Translations under genes and position numbers: made by a program
Notes under the pieces: generated by a model
The model's database searches: none
The model's input: only the letters and a program-made list of their open reading frames with translations
What the model was told of the DNA's origin: nothing
DNA from: Selenomonadaceae bacterium
Lineage (GTDB): Bacteria; Vulcanimicrobiota; Xenobia; Xenobiales; JADMJV01
Assembly (NCBI GenBank): GCA_037189585.1
Contig: JBBCJA010000012.1
Span: 58,693 to 122,692, forward strand
Direction: 5' to 3'
Length of the DNA stretch: 64,000 nucleotides
In this document: in pieces, positions 3,249 to 26,001 of the stretch
How the letters are laid out: each line of letters begins with the position of its first letter
Position numbering within the stretch: the first letter of the stretch is position 1

Positions 3249-3342
3249 CGCGACAAGAATTTCGCCTGTCCCGAAGTGAATCCCCCAAAGGTTCCCAAGG
3301 TCTGTTGCCAGTCGAAATATTCCTTGCTAAGCTATATGCTGA

Positions 3343-3816: not shown

Positions 3817-4511
3817 AACGTCACCGAGCCTCGAGAGCGACCACCCTTCCGGAGCTTCTCGTGGTCATGGCCGTCATGGGCGTTCTCCTTTACTTAGCCC
3901 AACGCGCCGTCGTCGCCGGGTTTGAATTCTATCGATTCACCGACGAGTCGATCACCCTTCAACGAGAGGGCCTTACCGCCCTGAGCTATATCACGGAAGA
4001 CCTGTTGGCCACTCATCAACGAAGCGTGGTTGTCAAGGACGTCCCAGTGGCCAGTCCCACACCCAGCCACGACGAGGACGAGTTGGTTATCCCTCTGCCC
4101 CAAAAACTTGACGGAACCTCCGAGATCAACAACGATTCCGGCGCCGTCAAATGGATGTCTGTCGTGGGGTATAAAATCGACACGACCAGAGACGACCGCC
4201 CGCTGATGCGACATCATGGAGACTCTCAGTACGACCCCGACAACGACTTCAAAGACCCGATCAGCGGTGACTACATCACCGACATCGAGATCATTACCCC
4301 GCCGGAACTCAAGATGCCGACTGTCGATGACATCGCGGGCTTCCCCGACACCGGGCGTCGATCTCGTGTGGTCGCTCGTAACGTTTTCTCTCTCGCCGTG
4401 GTCCGCCGAACCGATACCATTGACGTGGAACTAACCATTTTCTTGCCCGGCCGCTTTGTTAATGCGGACAATTCGATAACACTGGAAACGACGATCTTTC
4501 CTCGAAACTAG
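3813..4511 (+). CDS. Pseudopilin-like protein with a prepilin-type N-terminal helix and Ala at the -1 position
   Basis: RASRATTLPELLVVMAVMGVLLYLA has the Glu at +5 and a hydrophobic helix. Its start overlaps the upstream stop by 4 bp (ATGA). Confidence 0.5.
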   Translation: MKRHRASRATTLPELLVVMAVMGVLLYLAQRAVVAGFEFYRFTDESITLQREGLTALSYITEDLLATHQRSVVVKDVPVASPTPSHDEDELVIPLPQKLDGTSEINNDSGAVKWMSVVGYKIDTTRDDRPLMRHHGDSQYDPDNDFKDPISGDYITDIEIITPPELKMPTVDDIAGFPDTGRRSRVVARNVFSLAVVRRTDTIDVELTIFLPGRFVNADNSITLETTIFPRN

Positions 4512-4523
4512 TAGGAGACCATT

Positions 4524-6353
4524 ATGCGCAACACATACGACGATAAAGACAAGAGGGGGTCCGCGTTGATTCTCGTCGTGTTCACTCTCTTCTTGGTCAC
4601 TCTGGTCGTGTCCGCGATCTTCGCTCTCTCGCGGCAGAATTTCCTGGGCGTCAATAAAGACTATCACGGGAACAAGGCCGAGTACGGAGCCAAGGCCGGC
4701 ATCGAGCACGCCATCGCTCTGCTGACCAACGATCCCACCGTGGGCACTCAGGCCGGCGGATTTGAGCTCAATGACGAGCCACTCGACGGCGAGCCTGATG
4801 TCACCTACAGTCTTCACATCATCACCAACGGCTCCCCCCCACCGACCATCGTGACCGCTCCTGACGGATTGGCTATCCCACCCAGGGTCGCCTGGGTCAA
4901 GTCGACCGGGGTACTGCGGGATCGCGCGAATTCGTCCAGCTCTTCCCTGGTCAAGCTCGTGGGCCTTCAGCGCCCGATTCTCAAACAGGGACTCTTCGGG
5001 ATCAACTTCGTGGAAGTCAGCGACAACAGCACCGTTCAGGGATACAACTTCGCTCTCTCCGGCGCGGCTCGCAAACTCGACCGGAGGGGAGACATCGGAG
5101 TCAACGCCACGACGTTGTTTCCCAACCTCCTTGCTCCATCTCCTTCTCCCTACCCGGGAGTGAATCGCAGCGGAGTCGTGGTCGATTCAAGCTCCTCCAT
5201 CAAGGGGCAGGTGCGCGTGGGGGTGGGAAGTCCCTCCATCGGAACGGTCGCTCAGATCGCTCCGGGCACTGTAGTCAATAACGAGGACCCCACCAATGCG
5301 ACAGTGATCTCGCAAGAAGCGACTCAGGTCCCTCGCTTCATGCTACCGAGCGATCCCGCGTTGTCGAACTACCGTTTCATTCACAATCTGGTCACCCGGG
5401 ATACTGCCGTGGCCCCACCCTCTCCAGGCCCCTCCGCTAGCCCTATGGCCACATCGACGCCAGGGGGAAATACCTGGCGCATAGGTCCCTGGATCGCATC
5501 GTCACCGACCCCCGTACCGGCCTTCAACATCGACAACACCACGACACCTCCGGCCGGCGCCCAGTTACCCGACCCCGATCCGGCCACCACGGGCTACAAC
5601 GACCTGAAGGTCATCGCGCCCGGACTCTATGATCTCAACGATGTCGGCGGGGAGTTGACTCTCGAGAACGTGGTTCTCCGTGCCGGAGCACGCTACGAAT
5701 TTCGCGGCAACGTGACCTTCAAGGGTAACGTCAACATCTCGAATGTCCGCGCAAACGGCACCTCCTGGGACGACCCGGGTACCCCCGAAATCGAGTCTGT
5801 TCCCGCGACCTGTCTCTATGTTGATGGCGACGTCAAGTTTGAACCGGGCTGTAAGGTCAACATGGATCGTCTCGATGAAGACTCCGATGGAGATTCGGCT
5901 GAACCGATAGCTCCTCGTAGATTGCAGATATACACCTCGACCGGCCTTGGCGAGGATCAGTCGATTAGCTCCCACAACATCTTGGTGGGTGACTCCACAC
6001 CATCGCCAAAAGCGGAAGTATCGTGCGTCCTGGTGGGCTCGGCGATGCGAGTGAGACTTCGCAACACCGACTTCTACGGAGGAATTCAAGCTCTGGAAGT
6101 CATGGCGACCAACCATACCAATATCTACTTCGACGTCGACCTCTGGGGACAGCCCCTGGAAGGGCTCGGACAGATGGCGGTCCTGCTCAACACCGTCCAG
6201 GTTTATAGTCCGCCCATCTTACCGGCCGCTCCCGCTCCGGCGGCACCGGCCAGCGGGCCGGCGACCTCTCCTACCTACACGACCTATACGACCGGACCTG
6301 GATGGTGCTCCCCCATCATTCCGCTCCCGCAATCGGTTCAATGCTACTACTAA
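4524..6353 (+). CDS. GspK/PilX-like large minor pseudopilin with a Pro/Thr-rich C-terminus
   Basis: The N-terminus KRGSALILVVFTLFLVTLVVSAIFALSRQ resembles GspK, which lacks E+5. There is a strong SD (AGGAG) 8 nt upstream. The protein is 609 aa. Confidence 0.5.
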   Translation: MRNTYDDKDKRGSALILVVFTLFLVTLVVSAIFALSRQNFLGVNKDYHGNKAEYGAKAGIEHAIALLTNDPTVGTQAGGFELNDEPLDGEPDVTYSLHIITNGSPPPTIVTAPDGLAIPPRVAWVKSTGVLRDRANSSSSSLVKLVGLQRPILKQGLFGINFVEVSDNSTVQGYNFALSGAARKLDRRGDIGVNATTLFPNLLAPSPSPYPGVNRSGVVVDSSSSIKGQVRVGVGSPSIGTVAQIAPGTVVNNEDPTNATVISQEATQVPRFMLPSDPALSNYRFIHNLVTRDTAVAPPSPGPSASPMATSTPGGNTWRIGPWIASSPTPVPAFNIDNTTTPPAGAQLPDPDPATTGYNDLKVIAPGLYDLNDVGGELTLENVVLRAGARYEFRGNVTFKGNVNISNVRANGTSWDDPGTPEIESVPATCLYVDGDVKFEPGCKVNMDRLDEDSDGDSAEPIAPRRLQIYTSTGLGEDQSISSHNILVGDSTPSPKAEVSCVLVGSAMRVRLRNTDFYGGIQALEVMATNHTNIYFDVDLWGQPLEGLGQMAVLLNTVQVYSPPILPAAPAPAAPASGPATSPTYTTYTTGPGWCSPIIPLPQSVQCYY

Positions 6354-6383
6354 TGTCTAATAGGTCGATATAGTCTACTCCAA

Positions 6384-6441
6384 CAAAAAAACTGGCCAGT
6401 TCACCGCAGTAAAGGAACTGGCCAGTTTTTTTATTATTATT
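6384..6441. terminator. Bidirectional rho-independent terminator between convergent genes
   Basis: A-run, then two copies of the 12-bp palindrome AACTGGCCAGTT (6390-6401 and 6416-6427) separated by a 14-nt loop, then TTTTTTTATTATTATTT. Read on the opposite strand the structure again ends in a U-tract. Confidence 0.6.
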
Positions 6442-7216
6442 TCGCGGTCTTTACCGGGGCCTTCTTAGGAGTCGCCGAGGAGGCGGGCGTCGCGGCGGCG
6501 TCAGGAACTCGAGCAAGCATTTGCTGGATATCGGTCGGAGTCACTTTCCGATAGACCTTGGGAGGTCGTTTTCTTCCGCCTCCCCACAGCAGCTTGTTTC
6601 CCTCCAAGGCAAATTTGTGGGGAAGTGAGCCAGCCATCGTCGCGCTGCCCATCGTTCCTACCAGAAAAAAGGCACTAGACGACTCTCGGGAGACTCTACC
6701 CCAGCAGCCGAGCCGGTTCAAGGACTTCTTCTCATCGAGTCGTTGGAACATACCGACAAAAGTACCCGCGGGAGTAAATTCCACCACCTCGGGCTCTCTG
6801 TCGTCAGAACGCCAAAGCCCATCCAGACGTTTATCGAACAGGTCGTTCGCGCTGCTCCTCCGCGCTTTCTCGAACCGGCGTTTGAAAGCTTTACCACCAT
6901 CAATGATGAGTTCACCGTCATCAAAGGAACATTTCCAGGTGGTTCGCGCTTTCGCGATGAGGCTCTCTAAACTGACCTCATTTCCTTTCACCGACCAGAC
7001 ACCCACATCGACCGGCTCTCCATTGGTAACCACGGCGTACAGTCGATTGGGTGTGAACTCCACTCGACGATCAACCTGGTCCTCGGACCACGTCCCGATC
7101 AGAGCCTGGTCCAAAGGGACTCGTCCGCATCCACTCGCCCACAGCATAGCCCAGCCTAACAACCCGACGAGAATGAGCCTAGTTCTCACGGGGTCTCGTT
7201 CGCTCAACCAATTCAC
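6437..7216 (-). CDS. Hypothetical lipoprotein
   Basis: Signal peptide with lipobox LWASGC. No recognisable catalytic motifs. It lies immediately downstream of the S9 peptidase gene, so an operon is likely. Confidence 0.5.
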   Translation of the reverse strand: MNWLSERDPVRTRLILVGLLGWAMLWASGCGRVPLDQALIGTWSEDQVDRRVEFTPNRLYAVVTNGEPVDVGVWSVKGNEVSLESLIAKARTTWKCSFDDGELIIDGGKAFKRRFEKARRSSANDLFDKRLDGLWRSDDREPEVVEFTPAGTFVGMFQRLDEKKSLNRLGCWGRVSRESSSAFFLVGTMGSATMAGSLPHKFALEGNKLLWGGGRKRPPKVYRKVTPTDIQQMLARVPDAAATPASSATPKKAPVKTAK

Positions 7217-9130
7217 TTACCTGTTCTCTCCACTATCAATGGCGCGGCTCCACAAAAAATCCACCGCCGCCACCTGGTCCACCAAGCGGGAACCCAAGGC
7301 TCCGTGGATTCCTAGCTCCTGCTGCTGTAGATAAACCTTGTCGGCCAGACCTAGTTCTTGCGCGCGTTCAAGAAAGCGCCAACTGTGCCGGGGGTCGACG
7401 ACCGGATCCTCGGAAGATGTCGTCAGTAAAATTGTCGGAACTTTCTTATCGCGGCTCAGAAGGTTCAAAGGAGAAAGCCTCTTGAGTCGCTCAAGTTGAA
7501 CGGGATCTTGAGGATCCCCGTATTCACTCAACCACAGTTTTCCAGGGACTCTCGTCGGATACCCGACGAGGTCCGTCAGCCCCGCCTCGGCCCAAACCGC
7601 GCGAAACAGATCTGGATAGCGCAAAGCGACTATCAGTCCCAGAGTGGCGCCACTACTTCGCCCACGATAGACAACGGCTCGCCCGCCAAGATGCTCGGTC
7701 GCTTCAATCAAGCCTGTCACGGCAAGGTCCTGACCGAGAGGAGGTGTCTCCAACTGTACGATCTCGACGGAGCCACCACGCCTGAGCCACTCAAGACGCA
7801 CAGCATCGTAGTAGGGAAGAAGTTTCTGTCGAAAGGCTCCGTAACTTTCTAGCATCACTGGAGAGTTAGCAACTGGCTCTATCGCGTCCAACTTGACCGT
7901 CTCGGCCCCTACGGAGATCTGAAATCGCCGCGGGTCAATCCCCTCCAGGGGCATTGAAATGACCTCTTGAATAGCACCGTCCTTGAGATCGAGTAGAGCG
8001 GTGCCGCGCGGTTGAAAAGGCCCCTCGAAGTCAAGAGAGACTTTTGACCCCCCGGCTGGCCGAAATCGTCGGCCCTGTCCTGGTGTGGCGGGGAGACTCG
8101 TTGAGTGAATTTCTCCTGACGTGAGGTTCAGGATGGAGAGATGATGCCCCCAGGAGCCGGGAGACAGGATAGCCAGCCGGTCTGACCATTGATAGACATA
8201 GTCGGCCAGGCCTAATCGTGACACCAGCCGCCCTCTCAGCGAGAGAGTTCCCGACTTGAGATCTAGCGACTCTCTAGGAAGCGCCAGAACCCGAGAACTA
8301 CTGGGTCCGTCGCGAACGACCGCATAGAGCGTGGTTTGGCTCCATCCCGTCAGGCGAACCTGGTTTTCCTTAAGAGCAAAGCTTTGCCAAGGCGTATCCG
8401 CACGCCGGTCCATCCGAACCCATCCCCGTGTATCTAACGGTGCGCTACGGTCATATATGATGAGACCCTCGGGCGACATCGGCGCTACGGCGAGCCTGGG
8501 GAACTCCGCATCGCTAGTGGCGACCGTCTTGGATGTGCCTCCGATTTGGCTTTCCAGAACCTGGATCCGGCCTGGAAACATTTCGGCATAGAGGATCCGT
8601 TTCTCGTCCAGCCAGGTCGGTGAGAAGTGAAATGCCGCTCGAGAGGATATCGGAGTCACCGCCCCCGTGGAAAGATCCCAAAGTTCCAAGACGGCTATCT
8701 CAAGCGTGTTTGAGACCGTCGGCTCTCGACGCGATACTAAACAACGCTCACCTTCAGGTGACAAGTTGAGGTCAAAGGGGGCAACAGAGAAAGGAGACGC
8801 ACGAAGTAACTTCGCCGAGGCGAGAGCTCCATGAGTACCGTGCCAAAACGAAACCCCGTCAGAATCTTGCCTGAGCCAGGCTACCTTATCACCTCGAACG
8901 CTCGAGCATAAAAGTTCCCGTGAGGGAAGAGGCGTTGTGTCATCAGCCGTCGCCCTAAAGCGCTCCACCTGGGCCTGTTTCCACGCGGTGTCGGCCTCAG
9001 GGTCTGAAAGTGACGGGCCCGCGGACTGGCACCCGAGAACGAACAGACCCAGGGTGGCGAGCCCCTTAAGACGCCGGGACAAAGTAAAAGGCTCCGCCTT
9101 TCGGACGGAGCCTTTTACTTTGTCCCCCAA
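7217..9130 (-). CDS. S9-family serine peptidase (prolyl oligopeptidase / acylaminoacyl-peptidase-like) with an N-terminal beta-propeller. Lipoprotein, TTG start.
   Basis: Lipobox LFVLGC. The C-terminal alpha/beta-hydrolase part carries the nucleophile elbow G-R-S-S-G-A, then SEDPVVDP and GIHG. Confidence 0.6.
   Translation of the reverse strand: MGDKVKGSVRKAEPFTLSRRLKGLATLGLFVLGCQSAGPSLSDPEADTAWKQAQVERFRATADDTTPLPSRELLCSSVRGDKVAWLRQDSDGVSFWHGTHGALASAKLLRASPFSVAPFDLNLSPEGERCLVSRREPTVSNTLEIAVLELWDLSTGAVTPISSRAAFHFSPTWLDEKRILYAEMFPGRIQVLESQIGGTSKTVATSDAEFPRLAVAPMSPEGLIIYDRSAPLDTRGWVRMDRRADTPWQSFALKENQVRLTGWSQTTLYAVVRDGPSSSRVLALPRESLDLKSGTLSLRGRLVSRLGLADYVYQWSDRLAILSPGSWGHHLSILNLTSGEIHSTSLPATPGQGRRFRPAGGSKVSLDFEGPFQPRGTALLDLKDGAIQEVISMPLEGIDPRRFQISVGAETVKLDAIEPVANSPVMLESYGAFRQKLLPYYDAVRLEWLRRGGSVEIVQLETPPLGQDLAVTGLIEATEHLGGRAVVYRGRSSGATLGLIVALRYPDLFRAVWAEAGLTDLVGYPTRVPGKLWLSEYGDPQDPVQLERLKRLSPLNLLSRDKKVPTILLTTSSEDPVVDPRHSWRFLERAQELGLADKVYLQQQELGIHGALGSRLVDQVAAVDFLWSRAIDSGENR
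9077..9125. other. Perfect 20-bp inverted repeat (stem-loop) between the stop of the 9155..9568 gene and codons 2-18 of the peptidase gene
   Basis: GGACAAAGTAAAAGGCTCCG cctttcg CGGAGCCTTTTACTTTGTCC. Confidence 0.5.
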
Positions 9131-9154
9131 GGACTAGCCTTTAGCGAAGCGTAC

Positions 9155-9568
9155 TTACTTCGACTGACCGGCGAGCCACTTGTAGAACGGCACGGTGTGG
9201 ACCAGCTTGGCTTTCATTCCGTTGTCGGAAGCCACTTCAACCTTGGAGCCCACGCGGACACCCTCGACGCTGGGGTCGAAACGGGTGATACCGGGGTAGA
9301 GCCAGAAGGTGAGAAGGTCGCCGCTGCCATCAGCTTCGACAATCATGGCGAATCGGTCGAGGTAAACCACCTCACCCGAGTAGTCTTCATCGTACTGGAA
9401 GCCCAACATCGGGCTACCGTAGTCATCATGAGCCGGGCCGAGGTAAGGGTAGTACCAGGTCCCACCGGCTTGACGCTGATTGGGAACATCTTTGTTGTCA
9501 GCGTTGGCTGCTCCGCAGAGTCCAGCTACCAGCGCGGCCATAAGGGCCAGTTTTACCAACTTTTTCAT
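9155..9568 (-). CDS. Small secreted hypothetical protein
   Basis: Signal peptide MKKLVKLALMAALVAGLCGAANA. There is a strong SD AGGAGG 7 nt upstream of the ATG. Confidence 0.55.
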   Translation of the reverse strand: MKKLVKLALMAALVAGLCGAANADNKDVPNQRQAGGTWYYPYLGPAHDDYGSPMLGFQYDEDYSGEVVYLDRFAMIVEADGSGDLLTFWLYPGITRFDPSVEGVRVGSKVEVASDNGMKAKLVHTVPFYKWLAGQSK

Positions 9569-9701
9569 ATCGGTCTCCTCCTAAAGAATGGAATTGAAAC
9601 TCTTTCGAGATTCCTTCCAGCGACAGTCCGTTTCTCGTAGCCTTTAGGCATTCCTCCCAAATCAAAGGGGAGAGAATTATCTCTCGAAGAAACGTCTTAT
9701 T

Positions 9702-10910
9702 ATGGCGTCCTTCCCCAGTGTGCGTCCGCTTTCCCCCTTTCAGCTCCCTTCGGAAAACGGATCAGACCAACCAAAATTTGTTCTCCGCGACCCCGCCGAG
9801 CTAGCTCCCGACCAACTCCTGGTCAGCCTGCCGGCTCTTTATCTCATAGAACTTTCCGATGGAAGCCGAAGCAAGGACGAGGTTGTGGCTGAATTTGGCC
9901 GTCTGACCGGTACCCAAGTTCCGGTCGAACTTTTGAACCAGTTACTCGAGCGTCTGGACCGGAGCTATCTTTTGGATAATGAACGCGCTCGAGCCAGGTT
10001 GGGGAAAATCCAACCCCGCCCCTATCGGCTTTCCGGCTCGGCCTATCCCGCCGAGATGTCCCGTCTTCTCCCCTACCTCGACGATCTTATTGGCGCTGAC
10101 GACCCCGAAATCGTGAAACAGCCACTCTGTGCCTCCGTTTTGCCCCATATCGACTTTCATCGTGGCCGCGGCTCCTATCGGGCCGGATATCGGTTACTGC
10201 GGCATGGACTAGGCCCGGCCGACGCACCCATCACCGTGGTCATTCTGGGTATCTCTCATGCCATCGCGCGAGTGCCTTTCATTTTAACCCGGAAAGATTT
10301 CGCCACTCCCATGGGAGATGTGCGAACCGACCAGGACCTGGTCACTCGCCTGACCGAGAAACTTCCCTTCGATCCCTTTCTCGACGAATACAATCACTTG
10401 ACCGAGCATTCTATCGAGTTCCATGCGGTTCTGCTGCGCCATCTGGCCCAGGAGCGGTCACTTTCCATCGTCCCCATCCTCTGTGGGTCGTTCCACGACG
10501 CGCTACTAGGGAAATTCAGCCCCAAGGCTCTCCCTGGGGTTGGAGCTTTTCTGGAAAGGCTCCACAGACTCAAACAGGACCGTCCCGATGTCCACTTTCT
10601 GGCCAGCGTGGATCTCGCGCACATGGGTCTCAATTTCGACCAACCAGCGCTCGATGAGGGCCAATTGCGCGACCTGGGCCAGCAGGACCGGGAGACGCTG
10701 TCCCATCTGGAGCGAGGTGACGCCGACGGGTTCTTCGCCACCTTGCAAGCCGATCGAGGCGTTCGCAACTACTGCGGGACGCCCGCCATCTATACCCTGC
10801 TGGACCTTTTTCCTGAACCGTTCGATCTGGCCTCGTATCAACAATGCAGTGAAAGTGACCTGACCTCTACGGTGACCGTCTGTTCGGCGGTGTTGAAAGC
10901 CAAGCCTTGA
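9702..10910 (+). CDS. MEMO1 family protein (AmmeMemoRadiSam system protein B-like) with an ~80-aa N-terminal extension
   Basis: Motifs LPHIDFHRGRGSYRAGY, VVILGISHA, VDLAHMG and NYCGTPAIYTLL. Confidence 0.65.
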   Translation: MASFPSVRPLSPFQLPSENGSDQPKFVLRDPAELAPDQLLVSLPALYLIELSDGSRSKDEVVAEFGRLTGTQVPVELLNQLLERLDRSYLLDNERARARLGKIQPRPYRLSGSAYPAEMSRLLPYLDDLIGADDPEIVKQPLCASVLPHIDFHRGRGSYRAGYRLLRHGLGPADAPITVVILGISHAIARVPFILTRKDFATPMGDVRTDQDLVTRLTEKLPFDPFLDEYNHLTEHSIEFHAVLLRHLAQERSLSIVPILCGSFHDALLGKFSPKALPGVGAFLERLHRLKQDRPDVHFLASVDLAHMGLNFDQPALDEGQLRDLGQQDRETLSHLERGDADGFFATLQADRGVRNYCGTPAIYTLLDLFPEPFDLASYQQCSESDLTSTVTVCSAVLKAKP

Positions 10911-12279: not shown

Positions 12280-12948
12280 CTAGCCTAGACGGTAACCGCC
12301 GCCACGGACGGTGCGGAGCAACGGACTAGGATGATCTTTGTCTATCTTTATTCGGAGACGGCAGATCTGAGTGTCCACCACGTTACTCTGGGGGTCGAAG
12401 TGGATGTCCCACACCTTTTCAAGCAACATCGTCCTAGTCAGGACACGTCCCGCGTTACGCATCAAAATCTCGAGGAGCTTCATCTCCCTGGGGAGAAGTT
12501 GAATCTCTTGACCGGCTCGAGTCACCCTTCGCTCCCAGAGGTCCATCTCCAGGTCCTCCACGATCAACACCGGAGAGCTCTCCGCCGCTCCCCGACGACG
12601 GGTCAGAGACTCCACCCGAGCCAGGAGCTCGGCGAAGGCGAAAGGCTTCACCAGATAGTCGTCCGCTCCGGCTCTAAGGCCGTCCACGCGGTCGTCCACT
12701 TCCCCCAGCGCGCTCAACAAAAGCACCGGCGTCTCGTTTCCATCGGTGCGCAACATCTTGAGCAGCTTCATTCCGTCTCGTTTGGGCAGCATGCGGTCGA
12801 GAATGATGACGTCGAACCTCGCGCCCAGAGCCTGGTGAAGCCCCTCCTCGCCATCAGGAGAGTGCTCCACCATGTGCCCGCTCTCTCCGAGGCCTTTCAC
12901 CAGATATCTCGCGACCTCTTGATCGTCTTCTATGAGAAGAATGTGCAT
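12280..12948 (-). CDS. OmpR/PhoB-family response regulator
   Basis: REC domain (MHILLIEDD ... DVIILDRMLP ... DDYLVKPF) plus a winged-helix domain (TRTMLLEKVW ... VRGGGYRL). Confidence 0.85.
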   Translation of the reverse strand: MHILLIEDDQEVARYLVKGLGESGHMVEHSPDGEEGLHQALGARFDVIILDRMLPKRDGMKLLKMLRTDGNETPVLLLSALGEVDDRVDGLRAGADDYLVKPFAFAELLARVESLTRRRGAAESSPVLIVEDLEMDLWERRVTRAGQEIQLLPREMKLLEILMRNAGRVLTRTMLLEKVWDIHFDPQSNVVDTQICRLRIKIDKDHPSPLLRTVRGGGYRLG

Positions 12949-13014: not shown

Positions 13015-13026
13015 TTCGTGAAGTCA

Positions 13027-13390
13027 TTGCTATCAGCAAAACTGGCAGCACTGCCCGCTCAGAGTCCTCGCTATCAAGAAAACTGGCAGCACTGCCCGCT
13101 TAGAGTCCTCGCTATCAAGAAAACTGGCAGCACTGCCCGCTCGGATTCATTGCTATCAAAGAAAACCGGCAGCACTACCCGCTCGGATTCATTGCTATCA
13201 AGAAAACCGGCAGCACTGCCCGCTTAGAGTCCTCGCTATCAAGAAAACTGGCAGCACTGCCCGCTCGGATTCATTGCTATCAAAGAAAACCGGCAGCACT
13301 GCCCGCTTAGAGTCCTCGCTATCAAGAAAACTGGCAGCACTGCCCGCTCGGAGTCCTCGCTATCAAGAAAACTGGCAGCACTGCCCCCGC
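13027..13390. repeat. Tandem array of about 9 degenerate ~41-bp units (non-coding minisatellite-like array 1)
   Basis: The unit is GCTATCAAGAAAACTGGCAGCACTGCCCGCTyrGrkTCmTy. The period is not a multiple of 3. The array is the reverse complement of the one at 37950-38424. Confidence 0.8.
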
Positions 13391-13504
13391 GAGGTCTTCG
13401 GCCTGCTCTGAATCCGACATGACTCGGTCCTGTGGCTCTGACCACTTTAAAGACAAGGGCCCAGCTAGTGGCCGGGCCTTGTCCTACCGATGAGATGCCT
13501 TGGT

Positions 13505-14653
13505 CTAGGCGAACACGCCGCCACCGGAGGTAACTCGATTCTGGTTGTTGTTCCCAGAGGAGGGTTGTTGCATCCCCGGGGTAGTGACGTTTCCACCGCC
13601 ACCGCCGAGTTCAAGAGCCAGGCCGACCAGCTGGTGAGTTTCGGCCTTGATGCCCTGGTTCTGCTGTCCTCCGGCCTGCTGGTAGACCTGAGCCAGATTC
13701 TTGGTCAGGGCCCCGAGCGACTCTTGCCCACCACCGTTGCCGCCAAAGTTTCCTCGGCCGACGTTAGCCTGCACCGACCCACCGGCACTTCCGTTTTGTC
13801 CACCACCTAGGAAGCCTCCGAGGCCGGCTTGTGGCTGGACTTGTCCACCACCGGCGTTACCGTTTCCACCACCCGTCGCGAGGGTGATGATCTTGGTGGC
13901 CATCTGGGTCAACTGGGTGTCGAGTTGGTTGGCGCCGTTGATGGCGTTCATCGGATTGATGGCATTCGGGGCCTGTGCGGGTTGAGCAGCTTGAGCGGGC
14001 TGCGCGGCCTGAGGCTCGCCACCACCACTGGGACTTCCACCGCCGCTAGGACTTCCGCCACCCGACGATCCTTGACCTCCGGCCTGTTCTTCTTGAGCCT
14101 TGAAGTTCTCCATCAGGCCTTCGAGCAGACCCTTGATCTCTTCAATCTCCTTTTTCATATCTTCTCTTTCCCTGTCGACAGGCGGCTTCTCGTCAACAGG
14201 AGGTTTCTCGTCAACAGGCGGTTTGCCATCATCAGGCACGGGCATGATACCGTCCATTTCGTCATCGGGGTTGGGTTTTCTGGGTCCGTCCACCGGTTTG
14301 CCGTCACGAACTCGAGGGTCAGGAACGGGCTTGCCGTCGGCATCGGTGAAACCAGTGCTTTCGCGAGGGTCGAGCTCGACTATTCGGTTCTCGTCACCAG
14401 TGCGGCTTCTGCGACTCTCTGTCAGTTCGTTACTCAGGCTAACCCGATCTCCGGTAGAGGGAGACTTCGAGGTCTCCTCGCTCTTCTTGGTTTGTTGTTG
14501 AGCTTTAGGAGCTTCGGTCTTTTTGGCGGCTTCGCTCTTCTTGGGAGCTTGGGTGCGCTTGGGAGCGGACTTGACGCTGGAGCTGCTGGTTTTCTTGATC
14601 GACATAGTGGCCTCTTTCCTCGCGGGCTCGTGTCCCGTATTCTTCTTGACCAC
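13505..14653 (-). CDS. Low-complexity protein with a Lys/Ala/Pro-rich histone-H1-like N-terminus, a KPPVDE-repeat acidic middle and a Gly/Gln/Asn-rich prion-like C-terminus
   Basis: 382-aa ORF of extreme composition. AKKTEAPKAQQQTKK, then (KPPVDE)x3, then long GGQ/GGN stretches. No known catalytic motif. The start may be the internal MSIKK. Confidence 0.4.
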   Translation of the reverse strand: MVKKNTGHEPARKEATMSIKKTSSSSVKSAPKRTQAPKKSEAAKKTEAPKAQQQTKKSEETSKSPSTGDRVSLSNELTESRRSRTGDENRIVELDPRESTGFTDADGKPVPDPRVRDGKPVDGPRKPNPDDEMDGIMPVPDDGKPPVDEKPPVDEKPPVDREREDMKKEIEEIKGLLEGLMENFKAQEEQAGGQGSSGGGSPSGGGSPSGGGEPQAAQPAQAAQPAQAPNAINPMNAINGANQLDTQLTQMATKIITLATGGGNGNAGGGQVQPQAGLGGFLGGGQNGSAGGSVQANVGRGNFGGNGGGQESLGALTKNLAQVYQQAGGQQNQGIKAETHQLVGLALELGGGGGNVTTPGMQQPSSGNNNQNRVTSGGGVFA

Positions 14654-14764
14654 AAGATATCGCTTCGGTCCAAGGCGACCCCAAGATGGTCGCAGAGCTA
14701 TGTTGCGAAGTTGTTAACAGATGGACACGTTTTTGACTCAAGCAGTTCTGGAAGCTCTGAGCGA

Positions 14765-15694
14765 TCAAAGCGATGTCCTTCGGAGGACGACCAGGAGACT
14801 GGTGGAGCCCGAGCGCTCGGTCCAAAGGTCGTCAAGCTCTAGCAGCTCTCTGGTCAAGGCGATGATCAGCCGGCGATAGGCCCGCTTGAGCCAAGAACAC
14901 TTGAGAGCGCGCCTCGTCAGCCAGTCCGGTGCCGGTCCACCCTGCTTGAAATTGAGACTTTCGAACAGGCTCGCGACGGTCATGGCGTCTCTGGAGAAAA
15001 ACGGAGTGGCCGACACGAATTCCCACCGGTCATCGATATGTTCTCTCCACCAGGCGGCGCCAGGGACCAGGTTCTGCCGGCTGCTGGCGAGCTTGTCGTT
15101 GGCAAGTCTCCGGGCCAGGGCGTGCCGTCCCAAGCCTTCAGCCAGCCGTATGGTCCAGATGGAGTCGAGCCATCCGGCCGTGTTGTCGGTCAAAAGCAGT
15201 AGCCCTCCGGGGCGGAGTACCCTCGCGGCTTCCTCCATGACCGGGGAGCGCCGGTCGCTCTGATGGACCACGTTGTTGAGCCGGTAGACGTCTACCGAGT
15301 CGGCGGGAAGGGCCAGGGCCGCCGGGTCGAGCTGGTCCGAGAGTCGGCCCTCAGGAGGACTCCAGCCGAGTGACGAGGTGCCCACATTGAGACTCTCCCA
15401 CTTCGAGCCATCATCCTCGGCGGCGTACACCCGCGATTGAAGCATGAGAGTCAAGATGGGATACAAGCGGGTGGGATAGCGGGACCAAAGTTCCTCGAGA
15501 TATCCGTCGGGGGGCTCCCACAGCAGCTCGACCCGCTTTCTTGTTCGAGGAGCCAAGGCCAACAGAGCGGCGGAGTACAGTCCAGGCATGAGCAGGAGAG
15601 AAAAGGTCTTGCAGAGCCGAGCGACGGTCAGCGGAAGTTGGAGGGGAGGCCTCCCGTCGGAGGGATCAAACTTTATCAAGCCTTGGTCGACCAT
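14765..15694 (-). CDS. Class I SAM-dependent methyltransferase-like protein (type-11-like)
   Basis: Post-motif region DSVDVYRLNNVVHQSD...EEAARVLRPGGLLLL. The Gly-rich motif I is atypical. Confidence 0.45.
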   Translation of the reverse strand: MVDQGLIKFDPSDGRPPLQLPLTVARLCKTFSLLLMPGLYSAALLALAPRTRKRVELLWEPPDGYLEELWSRYPTRLYPILTLMLQSRVYAAEDDGSKWESLNVGTSSLGWSPPEGRLSDQLDPAALALPADSVDVYRLNNVVHQSDRRSPVMEEAARVLRPGGLLLLTDNTAGWLDSIWTIRLAEGLGRHALARRLANDKLASSRQNLVPGAAWWREHIDDRWEFVSATPFFSRDAMTVASLFESLNFKQGGPAPDWLTRRALKCSWLKRAYRRLIIALTRELLELDDLWTERSGSTSLLVVLRRTSL

Positions 15695-15700
15695 CCCGGT

Positions 15701-15756
15701 GAGCCTAACAGGCGCGCCTTACGACCAGCTTGCGCCCACATTGCAAGGCTGTAATC
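15701..15756. repeat. Dispersed intergenic repeat unit (copy B)
   Basis: GAGCCTAACAGgcgcgCCTTACGACCAGCTTGCGCCCACATTGCAAGGCTGTAATC. Confidence 0.6.
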
Positions 15757-15809
15757 CAAAGCGCGTCCTCCAAGGTTTTTCAGGAGGCTCGGATAAGCGA
15801 GCAAGGTTC

Positions 15810-17201
15810 ATGAAAACCTTTCGCAGCCGATTGACAACGGCCCTAGCGGGCTCTACCGCAGCCTTTCTCTCCCTCTTTTGCCTGTTGCTCTATCTCTGGT
15901 GTCGGGCGGCCTTTTTGGCCGATCTCGACGGCGACCTCGAAGCCATTCTCCGAGCCGATTTCGCCGCCCACGAGGCCCCCTCGAAAGAGCAGGCCAGGCC
16001 CGAGCGCAGGCCTCACGACAATGATGGGTCTCACCTCTTCAAGCTGCTGGTGGACCTCGAGGGCAAAGTGATGAGCTACTCAGGCCGTGACGGTGAGGCT
16101 CCTCCCGCACTGCCGCCGGGCTTGTTAAAGTCGGCTCTTCAGGGAGGTCCGACCTTCTTGGATCTGGAGTTCCACGACGATCTCTATCGAACTTTGACCA
16201 GTCCGGTGAAAGTCGACTCACGCCCCATGCTCGAGGTGCTGGGGATCTCCCAGGAACCGATGCAAGAGTCCCTGCGCGAGCTACGAAGAGTTCTTGGCGT
16301 GGCTCTTTTGGTCGGGATCGTTCTGGTCGCCCTAGTCTCCAATCGGGTCGCGGCCTACCTGACCAACCCCCTGGAACGCATCTTGAACCAACTCGAATCG
16401 GTCACCTCCACGGGGGACCCCGCCCTTCGGCTGACCGGGCGCTACGAGGACCGCGAGATGGTCGGCCTGCAGCGGCAGGTCAACGCCATGTTGGAACGGC
16501 TGGAGGCGAGCTTTCGCTCCCAGCAGCAGTTCATCTCCAACGCCTCTCACGAGCTCCGCGCGCCGCTGGCCAACTTGACCCTGGCCATCGACGTGTGTCT
16601 ACGGAGACCACGCGCCGCCCATGAGTATCGCGAGGCTTTGGAGACCTGCCTGGGCGAGACCAAGCGTCTGACGGAGATGTCCAACCAGCTCCTTCAACTG
16701 AGCAAGTCGGATGAAGGGGCTCTGGTGGTGCAGGCTGGGACCGTCGAGCTTCTTCAACTCTCTCGTTCGAGTCTCGCCCGTAAGGAGATGGCCGCCCGGG
16801 ACAAGGGAATTCGTCTGATCGTCGGTGGGGGTCAGGTAAGCTTGCCCGCGGACCCCGTGATGATCGCCCAGGTTCTGGACAACCTGCTCGACAACGCCAT
16901 CCGCTATTCTCCAGCCGGCTCCACCGTCACGGTCTTCACAGCCCGCCGGGCCTCGAGCGCCGAGATTTCGGTGAGCGACGCCGGGCCCGGCTTGAGCGCC
17001 GAGCAGATCGAGCACATTTTCGAGCGCTTCTATCGGGCCGACCCATCCCGCCAAAGGGGTACCGGAGGAACCGGCCTGGGCCTCGCCATTTCGCGAGCCA
17101 TCGCCCACGCTCACGGGGGAGAGCTGCTGGTGAAAAGCGTGCCTGGCGAGGGAACGACCTTCACCCTTCAGTTACCGCTATCCGAGCTCTCCAGCATATA
17201 G
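15810..17201 (+). CDS. Sensor histidine kinase (2 TM, HAMP-like, HisKA, HATPase_c). The likely start is the internal ATG at 15810, not the track ORF start at 15588.
   Basis: FISNASHELRAPLANL, VLDNLLDNAIRYS, DAGPGL and GTGLGLAI. The upstream part of the track ORF overlaps the opposite-strand methyltransferase gene and has no kinase features. Confidence 0.8.
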   Translation: MKTFRSRLTTALAGSTAAFLSLFCLLLYLWCRAAFLADLDGDLEAILRADFAAHEAPSKEQARPERRPHDNDGSHLFKLLVDLEGKVMSYSGRDGEAPPALPPGLLKSALQGGPTFLDLEFHDDLYRTLTSPVKVDSRPMLEVLGISQEPMQESLRELRRVLGVALLVGIVLVALVSNRVAAYLTNPLERILNQLESVTSTGDPALRLTGRYEDREMVGLQRQVNAMLERLEASFRSQQQFISNASHELRAPLANLTLAIDVCLRRPRAAHEYREALETCLGETKRLTEMSNQLLQLSKSDEGALVVQAGTVELLQLSRSSLARKEMAARDKGIRLIVGGGQVSLPADPVMIAQVLDNLLDNAIRYSPAGSTVTVFTARRASSAEISVSDAGPGLSAEQIEHIFERFYRADPSRQRGTGGTGLGLAISRAIAHAHGGELLVKSVPGEGTTFTLQLPLSELSSI

Positions 17202-23346: not shown

Positions 23347-24411
23347 CTAGGACATCAAAGCGTTGAAGACATATCCCATCACGATACCCAGAATCACCGT
23401 CACCGGGAAGGTGAAAACCCAGGCCAAGAAGATCTTGGCTCCGGTGCCCCATTTGACACTCCTCGGATTTCGTACCGAACCAACCCCGAGAATCGCTCCG
23501 GTGATAGTGTGCGTGGTACTCACCGGAACCCCCGCCGTGGCCGCCATCTCCAGAACCACACCCGCGCTCGCTTCAGCCGCGAAGCCTTCCACCGGACGAA
23601 TGTGGGCAAGCTTTGCGCCTAAGGTCCGGATCACTTTCCAGCCTCCGGCAGCCGTTCCGACCGCCATCATGGTGGCGCAGGCCAGCATCACCCAAAGCGG
23701 AATCTCGGGACTGCCGTCGACCACAAGCGGAGCGAACCACTCGGGGAAAACTTGAAGAGCGGCGGTGGGAGCTGTCATCAAGGCGAGGGTGATCACACCC
23801 ATCACCTTCTGAGCGTCGTTTTTCCCATGCTGATAAGCCATCATCGAGGCCGACAGGATCTGTAGCCCAGCGAACAGTCTTTTGCCTGGCTTGGCCCGAA
23901 GTTTGGCAGTGTGACTGAGCCAGACGGTGATCACCAGGCAGATGTAGGCTAGGATAAATCCCAACAGTGGCGACATGAACATCGCCACGAAAGCCGGCAG
24001 AATTCCACCCCACTTGAGGATCCCATCAGCTCCACCCATAAAAAAGGCGGTCCCTAAGGCTGCCCCGACAATCCCGCCCATCAGCGAATGCGATCCACTG
24101 ATCGGCATGCCTATCACAGAACAGTAGGCGACCCAGACCGAGGCCGCCGTCATCGCGGCCCCCACACCAGCCACGGTCATCAGATTCTCATCCACAAAGT
24201 TACCCGCGATGGTTTTGGCCACGGCGGTACTAGCCAAGGCCCCGATGAAGTTGAGTACCGAATTCATCAAGACCGCTTGCCATGGCCTCATAACCCTGGT
24301 CGACACGACCGTGGCGATAGCATTGGCGGAGTCGTTCCATCCGTTGCAGAAATCGAAGATCAGAGCAACGGCGATGACAAAAAGAATAAGGGTCGCCCCT
24401 GATTCAAGCAT
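23347..24411 (-). CDS. Inorganic phosphate transporter, PiT (PHO4) family
   Basis: NGWNDSANAIAT signature and 10-12 TM segments. Confidence 0.85.
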   Translation of the reverse strand: MLESGATLILFVIAVALIFDFCNGWNDSANAIATVVSTRVMRPWQAVLMNSVLNFIGALASTAVAKTIAGNFVDENLMTVAGVGAAMTAASVWVAYCSVIGMPISGSHSLMGGIVGAALGTAFFMGGADGILKWGGILPAFVAMFMSPLLGFILAYICLVITVWLSHTAKLRAKPGKRLFAGLQILSASMMAYQHGKNDAQKVMGVITLALMTAPTAALQVFPEWFAPLVVDGSPEIPLWVMLACATMMAVGTAAGGWKVIRTLGAKLAHIRPVEGFAAEASAGVVLEMAATAGVPVSTTHTITGAILGVGSVRNPRSVKWGTGAKIFLAWVFTFPVTVILGIVMGYVFNALMS

Positions 24412-25021: not shown

Positions 25022-25260
25022 GTGTTTCTCCTTGGTCCGTCCTCTATCGCGGGCACGGACGGCTTAGAATCTGTTTTCAGCGAAACCGTCGTCTAGCAAA
25101 CGAAAAGTGAGCGATAATAAACTTAACGCTATGCCGTTCAGCGCGACCTAACAGACCTCACCTGGTGAAGTTCCCACTTCCAATAGCGCACTCTTTCACC
25201 ACGCACGAGCCGTAAGGTTGAGGAAAACTTCCTGCAATGTAGCTATCCTAGCTTGGGACC

Positions 25261-25840: not shown

Positions 25841-25843
25841 AGG

Positions 25844-25891: not shown

Positions 25892-26001
25892 GACCCGAGT
25901 GATGAATTCTCAAATGAAACTATTTGAAGATGTTAGCAAGTTGTAACATCTGGTCATTCAGGTTCCTTTTTCATCCCATTTAGAGGAGATATCTTTTTCG
26001 T

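Follow-up and report, generated by a model that had tools for sequence, protein, structure and literature searches.

The reverse strand of the window (the whole 64-kb stretch of DNA analyzed) carries a genuine monocistronic protein-coding gene at 13505-14605. Its product is the founding window member of a previously undescribed protein family, all assignable members of which are in the Vulcanimicrobiota (Eremiobacterota/WPS-2). The protein is probably neither a histone nor a prion but a scaffold that self-associates and is regulated. In the reading that we prefer, with a probability of about 0.4, it would be a cytoplasmic, inducible scaffold with a polyanion-binding head, switched by a two-component system.

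The gene and its family

An ORF of 382 amino acids (aa) at 13505-14653, with its own stem-loop downstream, had been proposed in the preliminary description, and both features were found, the ORF reading from a GTG on the reverse strand. The start codon is almost certainly, or at least probably, the ATG at 14605 rather than this GTG, giving 366 aa, since a Shine-Dalgarno (SD) sequence (GGAAAGAGG; 14611-14619, reverse strand) ends 5 nt ahead of the ATG, relatives have the N-terminus M-x-I/V-K-K, and the same 366-aa product was called independently in the Logan assembly SRR27999909. The coding sequence (13505-14605, reverse strand; 366 aa plus stop) begins MSIKK and ends GGGVFA. The in-frame extension up to the GTG (14606-14653, reverse strand) contains the SD, lies ahead of the point at which the homologues begin, and is probably 5' UTR, not coding. 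In the relatives L007, L001, and L006, GAAAGAGG is kept. At the other end, an intrinsic-terminator-like hairpin (13444-13483, reverse strand) starts 22 nt past the stop codon, with 10-bp GC-rich arms (hairpin at 13452-13483) followed by the T-rich tail CTTGTCTTTA. Equivalent hairpins with T-tracts were observed 3' of the gene in L007, L001, L008, and L009, making five loci with the window.

The frame has a GC3 of 0.62, compared with 0.69 to 0.77 in neighboring genes, and the opposite strand carries an overlapping 337-aa ORF (13829-14842, forward strand). Both could suggest that there is no gene here at all but a chance ORF in GC-rich repetitive DNA, the real feature being the opposite-strand ORF. 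The low GC3 is explained by the content of Lys, Gln, Asn, and Gly codons. This extremely improbable reading was refuted by the conservation data: full-length homologues with 34 to 47% identity were found in frame, every indel was a multiple of three, the tandem paralogs L007a and L007b had a dN/dS of 0.23 (dS 0.70), and the SD, N-terminus, promoter, and terminator were all conserved. A frameshifted or absent ORF in close relatives had been named at the outset as the outcome that would speak against the gene; instead, the homologues were intact and under purifying selection.

Approximately 13 relatives were identified, and all those with a taxonomic assignment were Vulcanimicrobiota MAGs; the phylum has a single cultured representative. 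The relative P0001 shared 34% identity across 90% of the length (E 3.6e-21). When 1.84 billion representatives were searched with a profile, 8 true relatives emerged, and a scan of species-representative genomes returned 3 loci, all of them in Vulcanimicrobiota MAGs. A word-indexed search with the full family alignment recovered P0001 and P0002 only, as low-complexity words swamped it, and the same kind of search with a 41-aa alignment of the signature module described below gave zero matches. Zero relatives also came from an initial genome scan, from the two metagenome scans, and from one viral scan.

The window protein had no match in Pfam or NCBIfam even at E≤10. Scans of the protein and its relatives against Pfam, NCBIfam, and PHROGs gave either nothing or noise at E>0.01 on the first helix, and the PDB sequence search with the family profile gave only artefacts driven by GS linkers, such as an engineered FliS-flagellin fusion. 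No Rfam family was found in the window, and an exact-protein search with the PHO4 transporter encoded there gave no record. The variant P0009 was also modeled from its single sequence for an extra C-terminal domain, which was uninformative (pLDDT 39). Several specific identities were rejected. A phage structural protein was one of these. For FlgM anti-sigma-28 there was no match, the likeness was limited to a D-V-LS-E motif, and flagella and flagellin are absent from the cultured member of the phylum (PMC9758169). For an Hpt domain there was no match at E≤10, and the invariant His lies in E-T-H-Q-L-V with no K-G after it.

Conserved helices in a low-complexity chain

The protein had been described as low in complexity and tripartite, with a Lys-rich head, an acidic Pro/Asp linker containing a KPPVDE repeat, and a Gly/Gln/Asn-rich C-terminal half, and this layout held up. 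Among the 29 ORFs of the window it had the lowest complexity: its mean 25-aa entropy was 2.93 bits (median, 3.40), and 51% of the 25-aa segments fell below 3.0 bits (median, 4%). The whole protein has no Cys and no Trp, a pI of 5.4, a net charge of -4, a Gly content of 16.7%, and a GRAVY of -0.92. Neither a signal peptide nor a transmembrane segment was detected in it (Kyte-Doolittle maximum over 19 residues, 0.66), and the product would therefore be expected to remain cytoplasmic.

The head (aa 1 to 52; 14450-14605, reverse strand) is basic and rich in Lys, Ser, Thr, Ala, and Pro (K 23%, S 21%), with a net charge of +9 and APK(K/R) motifs, and is a candidate binder of polyanions, be it DNA, RNA, or polyphosphate. 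L007a/b, P0001, P0002, and P0007 have kept the Lys-rich A/P/K head; the L008 relative has none. A short linear motif, D-x-V-x-L-S-x-E ... R-(T/A)-G-D (aa 53 to 72; 14390-14449, reverse strand), follows and is common to the window protein, P0001, L007a/b, and P0009. The acidic linker (aa 73 to 145; 14171-14389, reverse strand) is rich in Pro (22%) and Asp (19%), has a net charge of -7, and consists of DGKPV units and the KPPVDE repeat (14174-14237; 18 nt × 2.8 to 3.3). Among relatives the linker differs in length and sequence; the KPPVDE repeat is lineage specific, its counterpart in L007 being DENGKP (21 nt × 4.3).

The earlier statement that the protein has no globular motifs did not survive structure prediction, which placed four conserved helices within the disorder; for three of these the AF2 pLDDT exceeded 90. 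The helices span aa 142 to 175, 219 to 245, 297 to 310, and 321 to 334, with pLDDT >90 for the last three and <50 for the rest of the chain, in a model built from only 8 sequences (pTM 0.32). Helix 1 (14081-14182, reverse strand; pLDDT about 80 to 87) is an amphipathic heptad helix, E-x-E-x-M-K-K-E-I-E-E-I-K-G-L-L-E-G-L-M-E-N-F, with hydrophobic residues at 7 of 10 a/d positions in one register. It is conserved in seven relatives, with the family form E-E-I-K-x-L-L-x-G-L-x-E-N-F found at aa 146 to 168 of the window protein, and may serve as a coiled-coil oligomerization element. A Gly/Ser tract, GGSPSGGG, and a Gln/Ala/Pro spacer (aa 176 to 218; 13952-14080, reverse strand), predicted to be disordered by AF2, lead to helix 2 (13871-13951, reverse strand; pLDDT about 94), which carries the conserved motif L-D-x-Q-L-T-Q-M/L-A-x-x-I; its core L-D-x-Q-L-T-Q-M/L-A lies at aa 228 to 236.

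Beyond an uncharged Gly/Asn/Gln-rich loop (aa 246 to 296; 13718-13870, reverse strand; pLDDT about 40), which is of variable length and has repeated (Q/N/G)FG motifs in its counterparts, the last two helices form a signature helix-turn-helix module, L-x-x-L-x-x-x-Y-Q-Q-A-G-G-x-x-N-x-x-I-x-x-E-T-H-Q-L-V-x-L-A-L (aa 297 to 334; 13604-13717, reverse strand). Ten of its positions were invariant across 11 sequences, including H324, the only His of the protein. In short form, the module is YQQAGG-x7-ETHQLVxLAL, about 35 aa near the C-terminus (aa 297 to 331 in the window protein). This family signature, absent from Pfam and NCBIfam, will be useful for annotation whatever the function proves to be. 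The Gly/Asn-rich tail (aa 335 to 366; 13508-13603, reverse strand) ends in GVFA; the tail motif (N)PNFGG is conserved in relatives and degenerate in the window copy.

The head had also been likened to histone H1 and AlgP, and the tail to prion-forming domains, which would make the product a nucleoid-associated protein with an amyloid-forming C-terminal half. The composition agrees in part: the head is Lys-rich with APK(K/R), that of P0001 is very H1-like (KAPKKPASKAPAKKSKPAK), and the tail is G/Q/N-rich and almost uncharged (the C-terminal 194 aa contain 26% G, 13% Q, and 9% N, with just 11 charged residues). The basic character of the head and the Gly/Gln/Asn richness of the tail thus stood, but membership in either class did not. 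The HMM searches tied the protein to no family, linker histone and Hc1 included (no Pfam or NCBIfam match at E≤10 and no relevant PDB hit), only about 50 residues are basic in a protein of pI 5.4, and the L008 relative does without a Lys-rich head. The Michelitsch-Weissman criterion reportedly requires at least 30 Q+N per 80-residue window; the maximum here was 22 per 80 aa, beginning at residue 279, and Gly dominates with up to 27 per 80 aa. In addition, the tail has three conserved, confidently predicted helices and is not a featureless Q/N tract. We therefore regard an H1-like, amyloid-forming protein as unlikely, and the original framing as mainly a compositional curiosity.

Putative upstream regulatory unit and gene neighborhood

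The genes of the family share a common unit of two TTAACA-like boxes 11 bp apart, a -10-like hexamer, a leader of about 90 nt, a strong SD, and a terminator. The two-box element lies about 95 to 125 nt ahead of the start codon before all family genes for which upstream sequence is present, and the conserved blocks stand out in otherwise diverged upstream DNA. In the window, the direct repeat is TTAACA-N5-GCAACA (14701-14717, reverse strand), with 11-bp periodicity, and is the sole match to KYHACA-N5-KYHACA in the 64 kb. A second two-box-like site at 25930-25947 was rejected; with its 2 mismatches it is of a kind expected by chance, and no clear ORF follows it. The hexamer CATCTT (14683-14688, reverse strand), which is GATCTT in relatives, lies 12 nt 3' of box 2, is followed by a conserved GG(G), and may act as a -10 element; the hexamer is weak, and a generic sigma-70 scan found no promoter. 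In the leader, the conserved element TCAAGAA (14643-14649, reverse strand) could pair with a conserved TCTTGG at 14680-14685. The predicted stem TCTTGG/YCAAGA is invariant, so that covariation speaks neither for nor against pairing.

By analogy, the repeat is a putative site for a tandem winged-helix activator of the OmpR/PhoB/SARP type. The DNA-binding domains of SARP and OmpR recognize direct repeats in adjacent major grooves that overlap the -35 element, and in SARP promoters the 3' repeat is about 8 bp from the -10 element, with 11-bp periodicity (PMC11301090). Used as a probe, this candidate cis-regulatory motif correctly led to an unnoticed second paralog in L007, and it can be used for annotation regardless of function.

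The gene neighborhood as a whole was poorly conserved, with no informative neighbors in L008. An OmpR-type RR/HK pair (RR at 12280-12948) adjoins the gene in the window, and regulators of the form REC-wHTH-BTAD, with a weak wHTH, are encoded near it in L001 (for example at 6944-9334), L004, and L007; given the abundance of response regulators in these genomes, this adjacency could be due to chance. No SARP-like regulator, pilin, PilC, or YcaO gene was found in the 64-kb window. Between the terminator of the gene and the start of the OmpR-type RR/HK operon lies a tandem array of 41 nt × 8.9 (13022-13386, forward strand). The gene had been noted as sitting beside this array. The adjacency is real, but a related array at 37946-38417 makes a link to the gene look incidental; the array is probably outside the unit of this gene, its adjacency is probably coincidental, and a functional link was rejected. 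The Logan contig L010 breaks within the 41-nt array.

Pseudopilin-like ORFs and a PilC-like T2SSF gene adjoin the gene in L004 and L009. The product could be an exported one: a substrate resembling harpins, a component of the matrix or surface, or a client of the neighboring type IV filament machinery in some relatives. A harpin-like composition (Gly-rich, Cys-free, and acidic, with short amphipathic helices) would fit such a role, as would the C-terminal PNFGG...F motif of the relatives, a possible sorting signal that also occurs in a second L004 protein behind the same type of promoter. Against this, the protein carries neither a Sec, Tat, or lipoprotein signal nor a prepilin motif, the window has no T3SS, T1SS, or T2SS genes, and PNFGG is degenerate in the window copy. 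The phylum is not known to have a T3SS or flagella, and its only cultured member has no flagella and no flagellin (PMC9758169). Export is accordingly considered rather improbable.

In L001, a YcaO gene is the divergent neighbor, and in L009 one lies at a distance of 4.3 kb. It could be proposed that the protein is a YcaO substrate, either a giant Gly/Ser-rich RiPP-like product or a backbone-modified protein, given also the conserved GGSPSGGG tracts and the Cys/Gly/Asn-rich tracts of the L008 relative, which we take to resemble the microcin B17 core. Yet no YcaO was found near the window gene, in L007, in L004, or in the scan of ten L008 ORFs; RiPP precursors are much shorter than this protein, most members have no Cys, and no recognizable partner (E1-like, TfuA, or dehydrogenase) was found beside the YcaO gene. 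We judge this reading very unlikely.

A candidate scaffold and its likeness to known systems

For the preferred reading, a cytoplasmic inducible scaffold, the following sequence of events can be proposed. A tandem winged-helix activator of OmpR/SARP type, and hence a two-component phosphorelay, would start transcription. The product would self-associate via the coiled-coil helix and the helical bundle, with weak cohesive contacts contributed by the uncharged, FG-containing Gly/Gln/Asn loops. The basic head (+9) and acidic linker would together form a block polyampholyte, the head being able to bind nucleic acid or polyphosphate, and partners would be recruited by the conserved short motifs, D-V-LS-E...RTGD and, in relatives, PNFGG. 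The outcome would be a multivalent scaffold, hub, or condensate former, whose action in some relatives may be tied to the type IV filament machinery. Self-association, polyanion binding, and condensate formation are predictions from composition and from the structure model of eight sequences (pTM 0.32); hydrogel or condensate behavior would be a reasonable reading of such a sequence.

A more specific version of the scaffold appears doubtful. Here, REC-fused SARP-like regulators acting on the two-box promoter would induce, by phosphorelay, an FG/Gly-Gln-Asn-rich hydrogel or condensate scaffold peculiar to one lineage of the Vulcanimicrobiota. Its folded three-helix core with the invariant Tyr, His, and Gln and its D-V-LS-E...RTGD and PNFGG motifs would either organize the machinery of type IV filaments (pili or pseudopili) or tether a polyanionic body, the nucleoid or a polyphosphate granule. 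If true, this would be a new bacterial membraneless-organizer system with its own dedicated regulon.

The Gly-rich, hydrophilic character of the product and its monocistronic, putatively inducible, tandemly duplicated gene are accommodated equally well by a stress protectant. On that account, the protein would be a bulk hydrophilin-, LEA-, or CAHS-type protectant, abundant and inducible, which shields macromolecules or vitrifies or gels the cytoplasm in desiccation, freezing, or osmotic stress, its helices forming or extending only on water loss. Gly at 17%, a GRAVY of -0.92, and the lack of Cys and Trp are in keeping with this, as are the monocistronic gene with its strong SD, terminator, and activator-type promoter and the tandem duplication in L007, with a possible gene-dosage effect. 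Members of the phylum are also typical of cold, dry, oligotrophic habitats. For V. alpinum, adaptation to polar and fumarolic environments has been described (PMC9758169). Nevertheless, no LEA, KGG, or CsbD Pfam match was found, the GRAVY is narrowly short of the hydrophilin threshold (relatives, -0.64 to -0.93), and the strong conservation of polar residues (T-H-Q, Y-Q-Q), together with the short linear motifs, points to specific partners more than to a bulk, solvent-like role. The family is also rare even in the phylum, occurring in 3 of the species-representative genomes scanned. A protectant is thus a possible but less probable explanation.

If the scaffold reading is right, the family would represent a new phylum-restricted disordered organizer protein of bacteria. 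In its unusually clear design, a basic head is followed by an acidic spacer, a coiled coil, and finally a helical core that cohesive Gly-rich loops break up. A recognizable dedicated promoter accompanies this modular design. It would, if true, offer an entry point to cell organization and signal-controlled expression in the Vulcanimicrobiota (Eremiobacterota).

The upstream element resembles SARP and OmpR/PhoB promoters in having two direct-repeat boxes one helical turn (11 bp) apart that replace the -35 element and lie immediately upstream of a weak -10-like element, and REC-wHTH-BTAD regulators encoded nearby in three relatives recall SARP systems. It differs in the distance from box 2 to the -10-like hexamer, 12 nt and not 8 bp, and in its box sequence, TTAACA, which is unlike known SARP boxes. 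Unlike SARPs, the nearby regulators have an N-terminal receiver domain, a large middle region, and a wHTH below the Pfam cutoff.

The high Gly content, strong hydrophilicity, and disordered termini around helix-forming segments are shared with hydrophilins, LEA, and CAHS proteins, which are encoded by inducible stand-alone genes that are sometimes duplicated, an arrangement that would hold for the present family as well. The Garay-Arroyo criteria for hydrophilins are said to be a Gly content above 6% and a mean hydrophilicity above 1; the Gly content here (16.7%) is well within the first, and the GRAVY (-0.92) narrowly misses the second. Invariant polar residues, suggestive of specific binding, set the present family apart from these proteins.

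AlgP, PhaF/PhaM, and chlamydial Hc1 are H1-like bacterial proteins with Lys/Ala/Pro tails, and PhaF/PhaM combine a basic segment with amphipathic helices and a zipper and tether a PHA or polyphosphate granule to the nucleoid. A Lys/Ala/Pro-rich segment with APKK-type motifs is common to these proteins and the window protein. The basic segment here is, in contrast, about 50 aa long, N-terminal, Ser/Thr-rich, and followed by an acidic block (pI 5.4), and there was neither a phasin or linker-histone HMM match nor an adjacent granule gene. The only cultured phylum member makes PHA and polyphosphate granules (PMC9758169).

In composition, the protein agrees with the harpins (Gly 16.7%, no Cys, pI 5.4). 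HrpN, HrpZ, and HrpW, the harpins of plant-pathogenic bacteria, share with it a high Gly content (17% here), the absence of Cys, an acidic character, and a chain that lacks a Sec signal and is unstructured apart from short amphipathic helices. Harpins, however, have neither a Lys-rich head nor the THQLV module, and here there is no T3SS/hrp context. This identity was rejected, with no harpin Pfam match and no T3SS genes in the 64-kb window or the loci of the relatives.

PopZ (Pfam PopZ/DUF2497) of the Alphaproteobacteria is a polar hub and condensate-forming scaffold that recruits clients via short motifs. Its layout is similar to that of the window protein: a region for interactions at the N-terminus, then a long disordered linker that is acidic and rich in Pro/Glu/Asp, then three short C-terminal helices, which oligomerize in PopZ; both are also Cys-free and acidic, and both cytoplasmic if the predicted location of the window protein is correct. 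There is no sequence or HMM similarity (Pfam, E≤10), and the likeness is only architectural. The Lys-rich basic head, the separate heptad helix, and the long Gly/Gln/Asn loops within the helical domain are differences from PopZ, as is the phylum.

Finally, the TDP-43 C-terminal domain and the GLFG-type FG nucleoporins are eukaryotic cohesive low-complexity domains with embedded helices. The C-terminal half is similar to them in its almost uncharged G/Q/N/(M/F)-rich sequence with embedded conserved helical segments and, in relatives, to the FG nucleoporins in repeated xFG, with six FG in P0001 and five in P0009. The window copy has only one FG, Gly outweighs Q/N, and there is no homology.

Reading frame, composition and relatives

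The minus-strand ORF 13505..14653 was confirmed (382 aa counted from GTG). The ATG at 14605 is favored as the probable start, giving a 366-aa protein (13505-14605) with the N terminus MSIKK, because GGAAAGAGG lies 5 nt upstream of it, the equivalent M-x-I/V-K-K position is the N terminus of relatives, and an independent gene call in Logan assembly SRR27999909 gave exactly the same 366-aa protein. That short-read contig, from a public assembly, is 100% identical to window positions 13357-16605 and terminates inside a 41-nt tandem array, evidence that the array breaks assemblies. The PHO4 protein of the window had no public record on look-up, and the organism is thus represented just fragmentarily in public data.

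As the preliminary description had proposed, composition was tripartite, with a Lys-rich head (residues 1 to 52; K 23%, S 21%, net charge +9), an acidic linker (residues 73 to 145; P 22%, D 19%, net charge -7) containing an 18-nt tandem repeat coding KPPVDE (14174-14237), and a C-terminal part of 194 residues (G 26%, Q 13%, N 9%) with just 11 charged residues. The protein contains no Cys or Trp and 1 His, has a pI of 5.4 and a GRAVY of -0.92, and lacks a hydrophobic segment (19-residue Kyte-Doolittle maximum, 0.66). The stem-loop claimed for the gene was also found, as a hairpin at 13452-13483, GC-rich and followed by a T-rich tail, 22 nt past the stop codon. Among 29 large window ORFs the protein ranked lowest in complexity (mean 25-aa entropy, 2.93 bits; median, 3.40). 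Second lowest was an RlmL/RlmK-like rRNA methyltransferase (THUMP plus UPF0020; 39316-41241, minus strand) with an N-terminal extension of ∼200 aa made of REGGPRREGGGYN repeats (40694-41109); the extension is Arg/Gly-rich and GAR/RGG-like, recalling the N terminus of eukaryotic fibrillarin.

No Pfam or NCBIfam family matched the window protein, even at E≤10. A word-indexed search returned P0001 (34% identity across 90% of the length, E 3.6e-21), and seven more relatives (P0002-P0004 and P0006-P0009) came from searching 1.84 billion cluster representatives with a profile; P0005 was discarded as a low-complexity artefact. Scanning 185,579 species-representative genomes with the most conserved peptide yielded three loci (L007, L008 and L009), all annotated as Vulcanimicrobiota MAGs, while scans of metagenome and viral contigs yielded no relatives. 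Vulcanimicrobium alpinum, the only cultured species (68.4% GC, versus ∼60% in the window), was not among the matches of the genome scan, which confines the family to a sub-lineage. V. alpinum makes PHA as well as polyphosphate granules and has type IV pili but lacks flagella (PMC9758169). The window, from a lineage in which the cultured relative uses type IV pili and not flagella to move, carries a complete chemosensory cluster (43058-51432) of CheB, a CheA-like Hpt-HATPase-REC hybrid, CheR, a CHASE3-HAMP MCP and a double-REC hybrid kinase.

A second tandem paralog in L007 (1512-2486), which surfaced only through a promoter-motif search, shares 73% protein identity with the copy at 3208-4158 (dS 0.70, dN 0.16). 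The resulting dN/dS of 0.23 shows that the reading frame is under purifying selection, low-complexity parts included. Each paralog comes with a two-box promoter, a leader and a terminator of its own, and the two are separated by an unrelated 62-nt tandem array of 4.1 copies (2589-2842). The L007 contig also encodes Cas1 and an AEP-TOTE conflict-system gene (5972-8304). The preliminary description had made the ORF depend on its presence in relatives; relatives exist, and these comparisons show a conserved protein under purifying selection. The GC3 of the window frame is lower than that of its neighbors (0.62 versus 0.69 to 0.77) because of amino acid bias, and a non-coding artefact is extremely improbable. 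The ORF is a real gene; the overlapping plus-strand ORF 13829..14842 is a shadow ORF.

Conserved modules of the family

The preliminary description had seen no globular motifs; this did not hold, as the protein was shown to combine disordered blocks with four conserved helices. In the family alignment, a Lys/Ala/Pro/Ser head with APK(K/R) motifs (in the window protein, both L007 paralogs, P0001, P0002 and P0007) was followed by the short motif D-x-V-x-L-S-x-E...R-(T/A)-G-D and an acidic Pro-rich linker of varying length, in which the KPPVDE repeat is confined to the window lineage and its L007 counterpart is a DENGKP repeat. Next came a conserved amphipathic helix, E-x-E-x-M-K-K-E-I-E-E-I-K-G-L-L-E-G-L-M-E-N-F, with 7/10 a/d heptad positions hydrophobic in one register, then a GGSPSGGG tract, a Q/A/P spacer and a helix with the motif L-D-x-Q-L-T-Q-M/L-A. 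The uncharged Gly/Gln/Asn loop beyond it is variable and carries repeated xFG motifs in several relatives (six FG in P0001, five in P0009). It precedes the signature module, L-x3-Y-Q-Q-A-G-G-x2-N-x2-I-x2-E-T-H-Q-L-V-x-L-A-L, which has ten invariant positions, including the sole His of the protein. In relatives the Gly-rich tail carries (N)PNFGG and its last residue is hydrophobic; the window copy retains just ...GGGVFA.

The head had been likened to histone H1 and AlgP, and the tail to prion-forming domains. The Lys-rich basic head and the G/Q/N-rich tail support this as a description of composition only; HMM searches showed no similarity, the pI of the whole protein is acidic, and the tail reaches 22 Q/N per 80 residues where 30 are required. 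A nucleoid protein of the H1 type with a prion-like tail is therefore improbable.

The divergent L008 member (9155-10255), whose true start is likely the second ATG (MAGSRG...) with AGGAGG ahead of it, has no Lys-rich head; its N-terminal half instead carries Asn/Gly/Cys-rich tracts, NGNCNNNGNCNGGGCDGGG...DCGGGGGECGGGG, that recall microcin B17-type cores by composition. YcaO also recurs beside relatives (L001, divergent and adjacent; L009, 4.3 kb away). None was found among ten ORFs scanned around the L008 member, whose neighbors were not informative, and a YcaO substrate is very unlikely.

Upstream unit and genomic neighborhood

When ∼145 nt upstream of the family genes were aligned, conserved blocks stood in otherwise diverged sequence, showing a conserved cis-regulatory unit. 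Two TTAACA-like hexamers 11 bp apart, TGTTAACAA-N4-G(T/C)(T/A)AACAT, are followed after a 12-nt spacer by a -10-like block, (G/C)ATCTT, and GG; YCAAGAA lies ∼30 nt beyond, and GAAAGAGG and the ATG a further ∼20 nt. Intrinsic-terminator hairpins were found 3' of the gene in the window, L007, L001, L008 and L009. With the upstream unit, they make the gene a self-contained monocistronic unit.

The degenerate pattern KYHACA-N5-KYHACA had a single window match, at 14701-14717 (minus strand) ahead of the gene (chance expectation, 0.49), and occurred in the corresponding place ahead of each family gene with upstream sequence, a partly circular result since the pattern was derived from these sequences. 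Its independent value is in pointing to the L007 paralog and to a 245-aa protein in L004 (4425-5273), both previously unseen. The latter is a different protein and partly disordered, with NPNVFGG near its N terminus, a basic disordered region rich in Ser, Arg, Lys and Pro, and, at the C terminus, a small domain without a Pfam match. Its promoter is of the same two-box type, which suggests a small regulon whose partly disordered products have a PNFGG-like motif in common. A weak two-box-like site at 25930-25947 (2 mismatches) was within chance expectation.

OmpR/PhoB-type and SARP winged-helix activators are known to bind direct repeats that are spaced by one helical turn and take the place of a -35 element. 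Their paired DNA-binding domains occupy adjacent major grooves, overlapping the -35 element and lying 8 bp from the -10 (PMC11301090). The family promoters share the direct repeats one helical turn apart but differ in the longer distance, 12 nt, to the -10-like hexamer. The two boxes are a candidate site for an activator of this type. A generic sigma-70 scan found no promoter ahead of the window gene, consistent with activator dependence.

A protein of ∼750 to 800 aa that combines a receiver domain and a BTAD domain with a weak Trans_reg_C match, by its domains a receiver-fused SARP-like regulator, recurred near relatives (L001, adjacent and convergent; L004, 5.5 kb away; L007, 1.8 kb upstream), with orthologues at 31 to 61% identity. 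Adjacency to receiver-domain genes is weak evidence because such domains are very common in these genomes; the recurring orthologue together with a SARP-compatible promoter is more telling. Unusual signalling fusions near relatives (L004 14655-16397; L001 6944-9334; L004 16430-18694) were of two kinds. In one, a receiver domain is joined to a T2SSF platform protein of the PilC-like type; the others, receiver-(HD_5)-wHTH-BTAD proteins with 750 to 800 aa, are receiver-fused SARP-like regulators.

Pseudopilin-like ORFs (N_methyl motif, GLSLLE/GMSLLE) and a PilC-like T2SSF protein directly adjoin the family gene in L004 and L009, in differing order. Export of the protein, as a harpin-like or pilus-associated factor, is nevertheless quite improbable, with both a signal sequence and a T3SS context absent. 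Genes for pili, secretion, YcaO or BTAD proteins are absent from the 64-kb window.

Here the gene is flanked upstream by a Methyltransf_11 gene and downstream by a tandem array and an OmpR-type response regulator/histidine kinase operon; another histidine kinase/response regulator pair lies further upstream. The remainder encodes glycosyltransferases, an RND efflux system, DinB, the chemosensory cluster, a Ser/Thr kinase, and a phosphate transporter and phosphate porin. Beside the PHO4 transporter, a 205-aa ORF (24404-25021) was PhoU-like as judged by eye only. Between it and a 236-aa ORF that weakly matched subtilase, almost 1 kb (25022-26001) had no convincing ORF and included a possibly degraded plus-strand ORF (25261-25629).

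The preliminary description had placed the gene immediately beside the array, and the 41-nt array of 8.9 copies does lie there (13022-13386). The adjacency was treated as incidental because the array lies beyond the gene's terminator, upstream of the regulator/kinase operon, because a related 41-nt array of 11.6 copies occurs in opposite orientation at 37946-38417, and because relatives' loci have unrelated 40- to 62-nt arrays elsewhere. The second array (unit GCTATCA..AAAACTGGCAGCGTTGCCCGCG, with a short GGCAG..CTGCC palindrome) is flanked by DinB (36771-37892) and by a gene for a GNAT acetyltransferase. The 41-nt arrays look like a genome-wide family of intergenic arrays.

Proposed function and comparison with known proteins

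The simplest model, to which a probability of about 40% was assigned, is an inducible multivalent scaffold, acting as a hub or condensate-former. The protein would be cytoplasmic, since it lacks a signal peptide. The heptad helix and helical bundle would drive self-association, with the uncharged Gly/Gln/Asn (FG) loops adding weak cohesion; the basic head would bind polyanions and might interact electrostatically with the acidic linker, and partners would be recruited through the conserved short motifs. The main rival, a bulk stress protectant of the hydrophilin/LEA/CAHS kind, fits the gene structure, the gene duplication and the habitat, but invariant polar residues and linear motifs fit it less well, and it was considered unlikely. 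The scaffold model follows a logic like that of PopZ or PhaF/PhaM-type proteins. The family is novel as a family (real, well defined and orphan); at the level of the system, it varies a theme already known from disordered scaffold or protectant proteins in bacteria.
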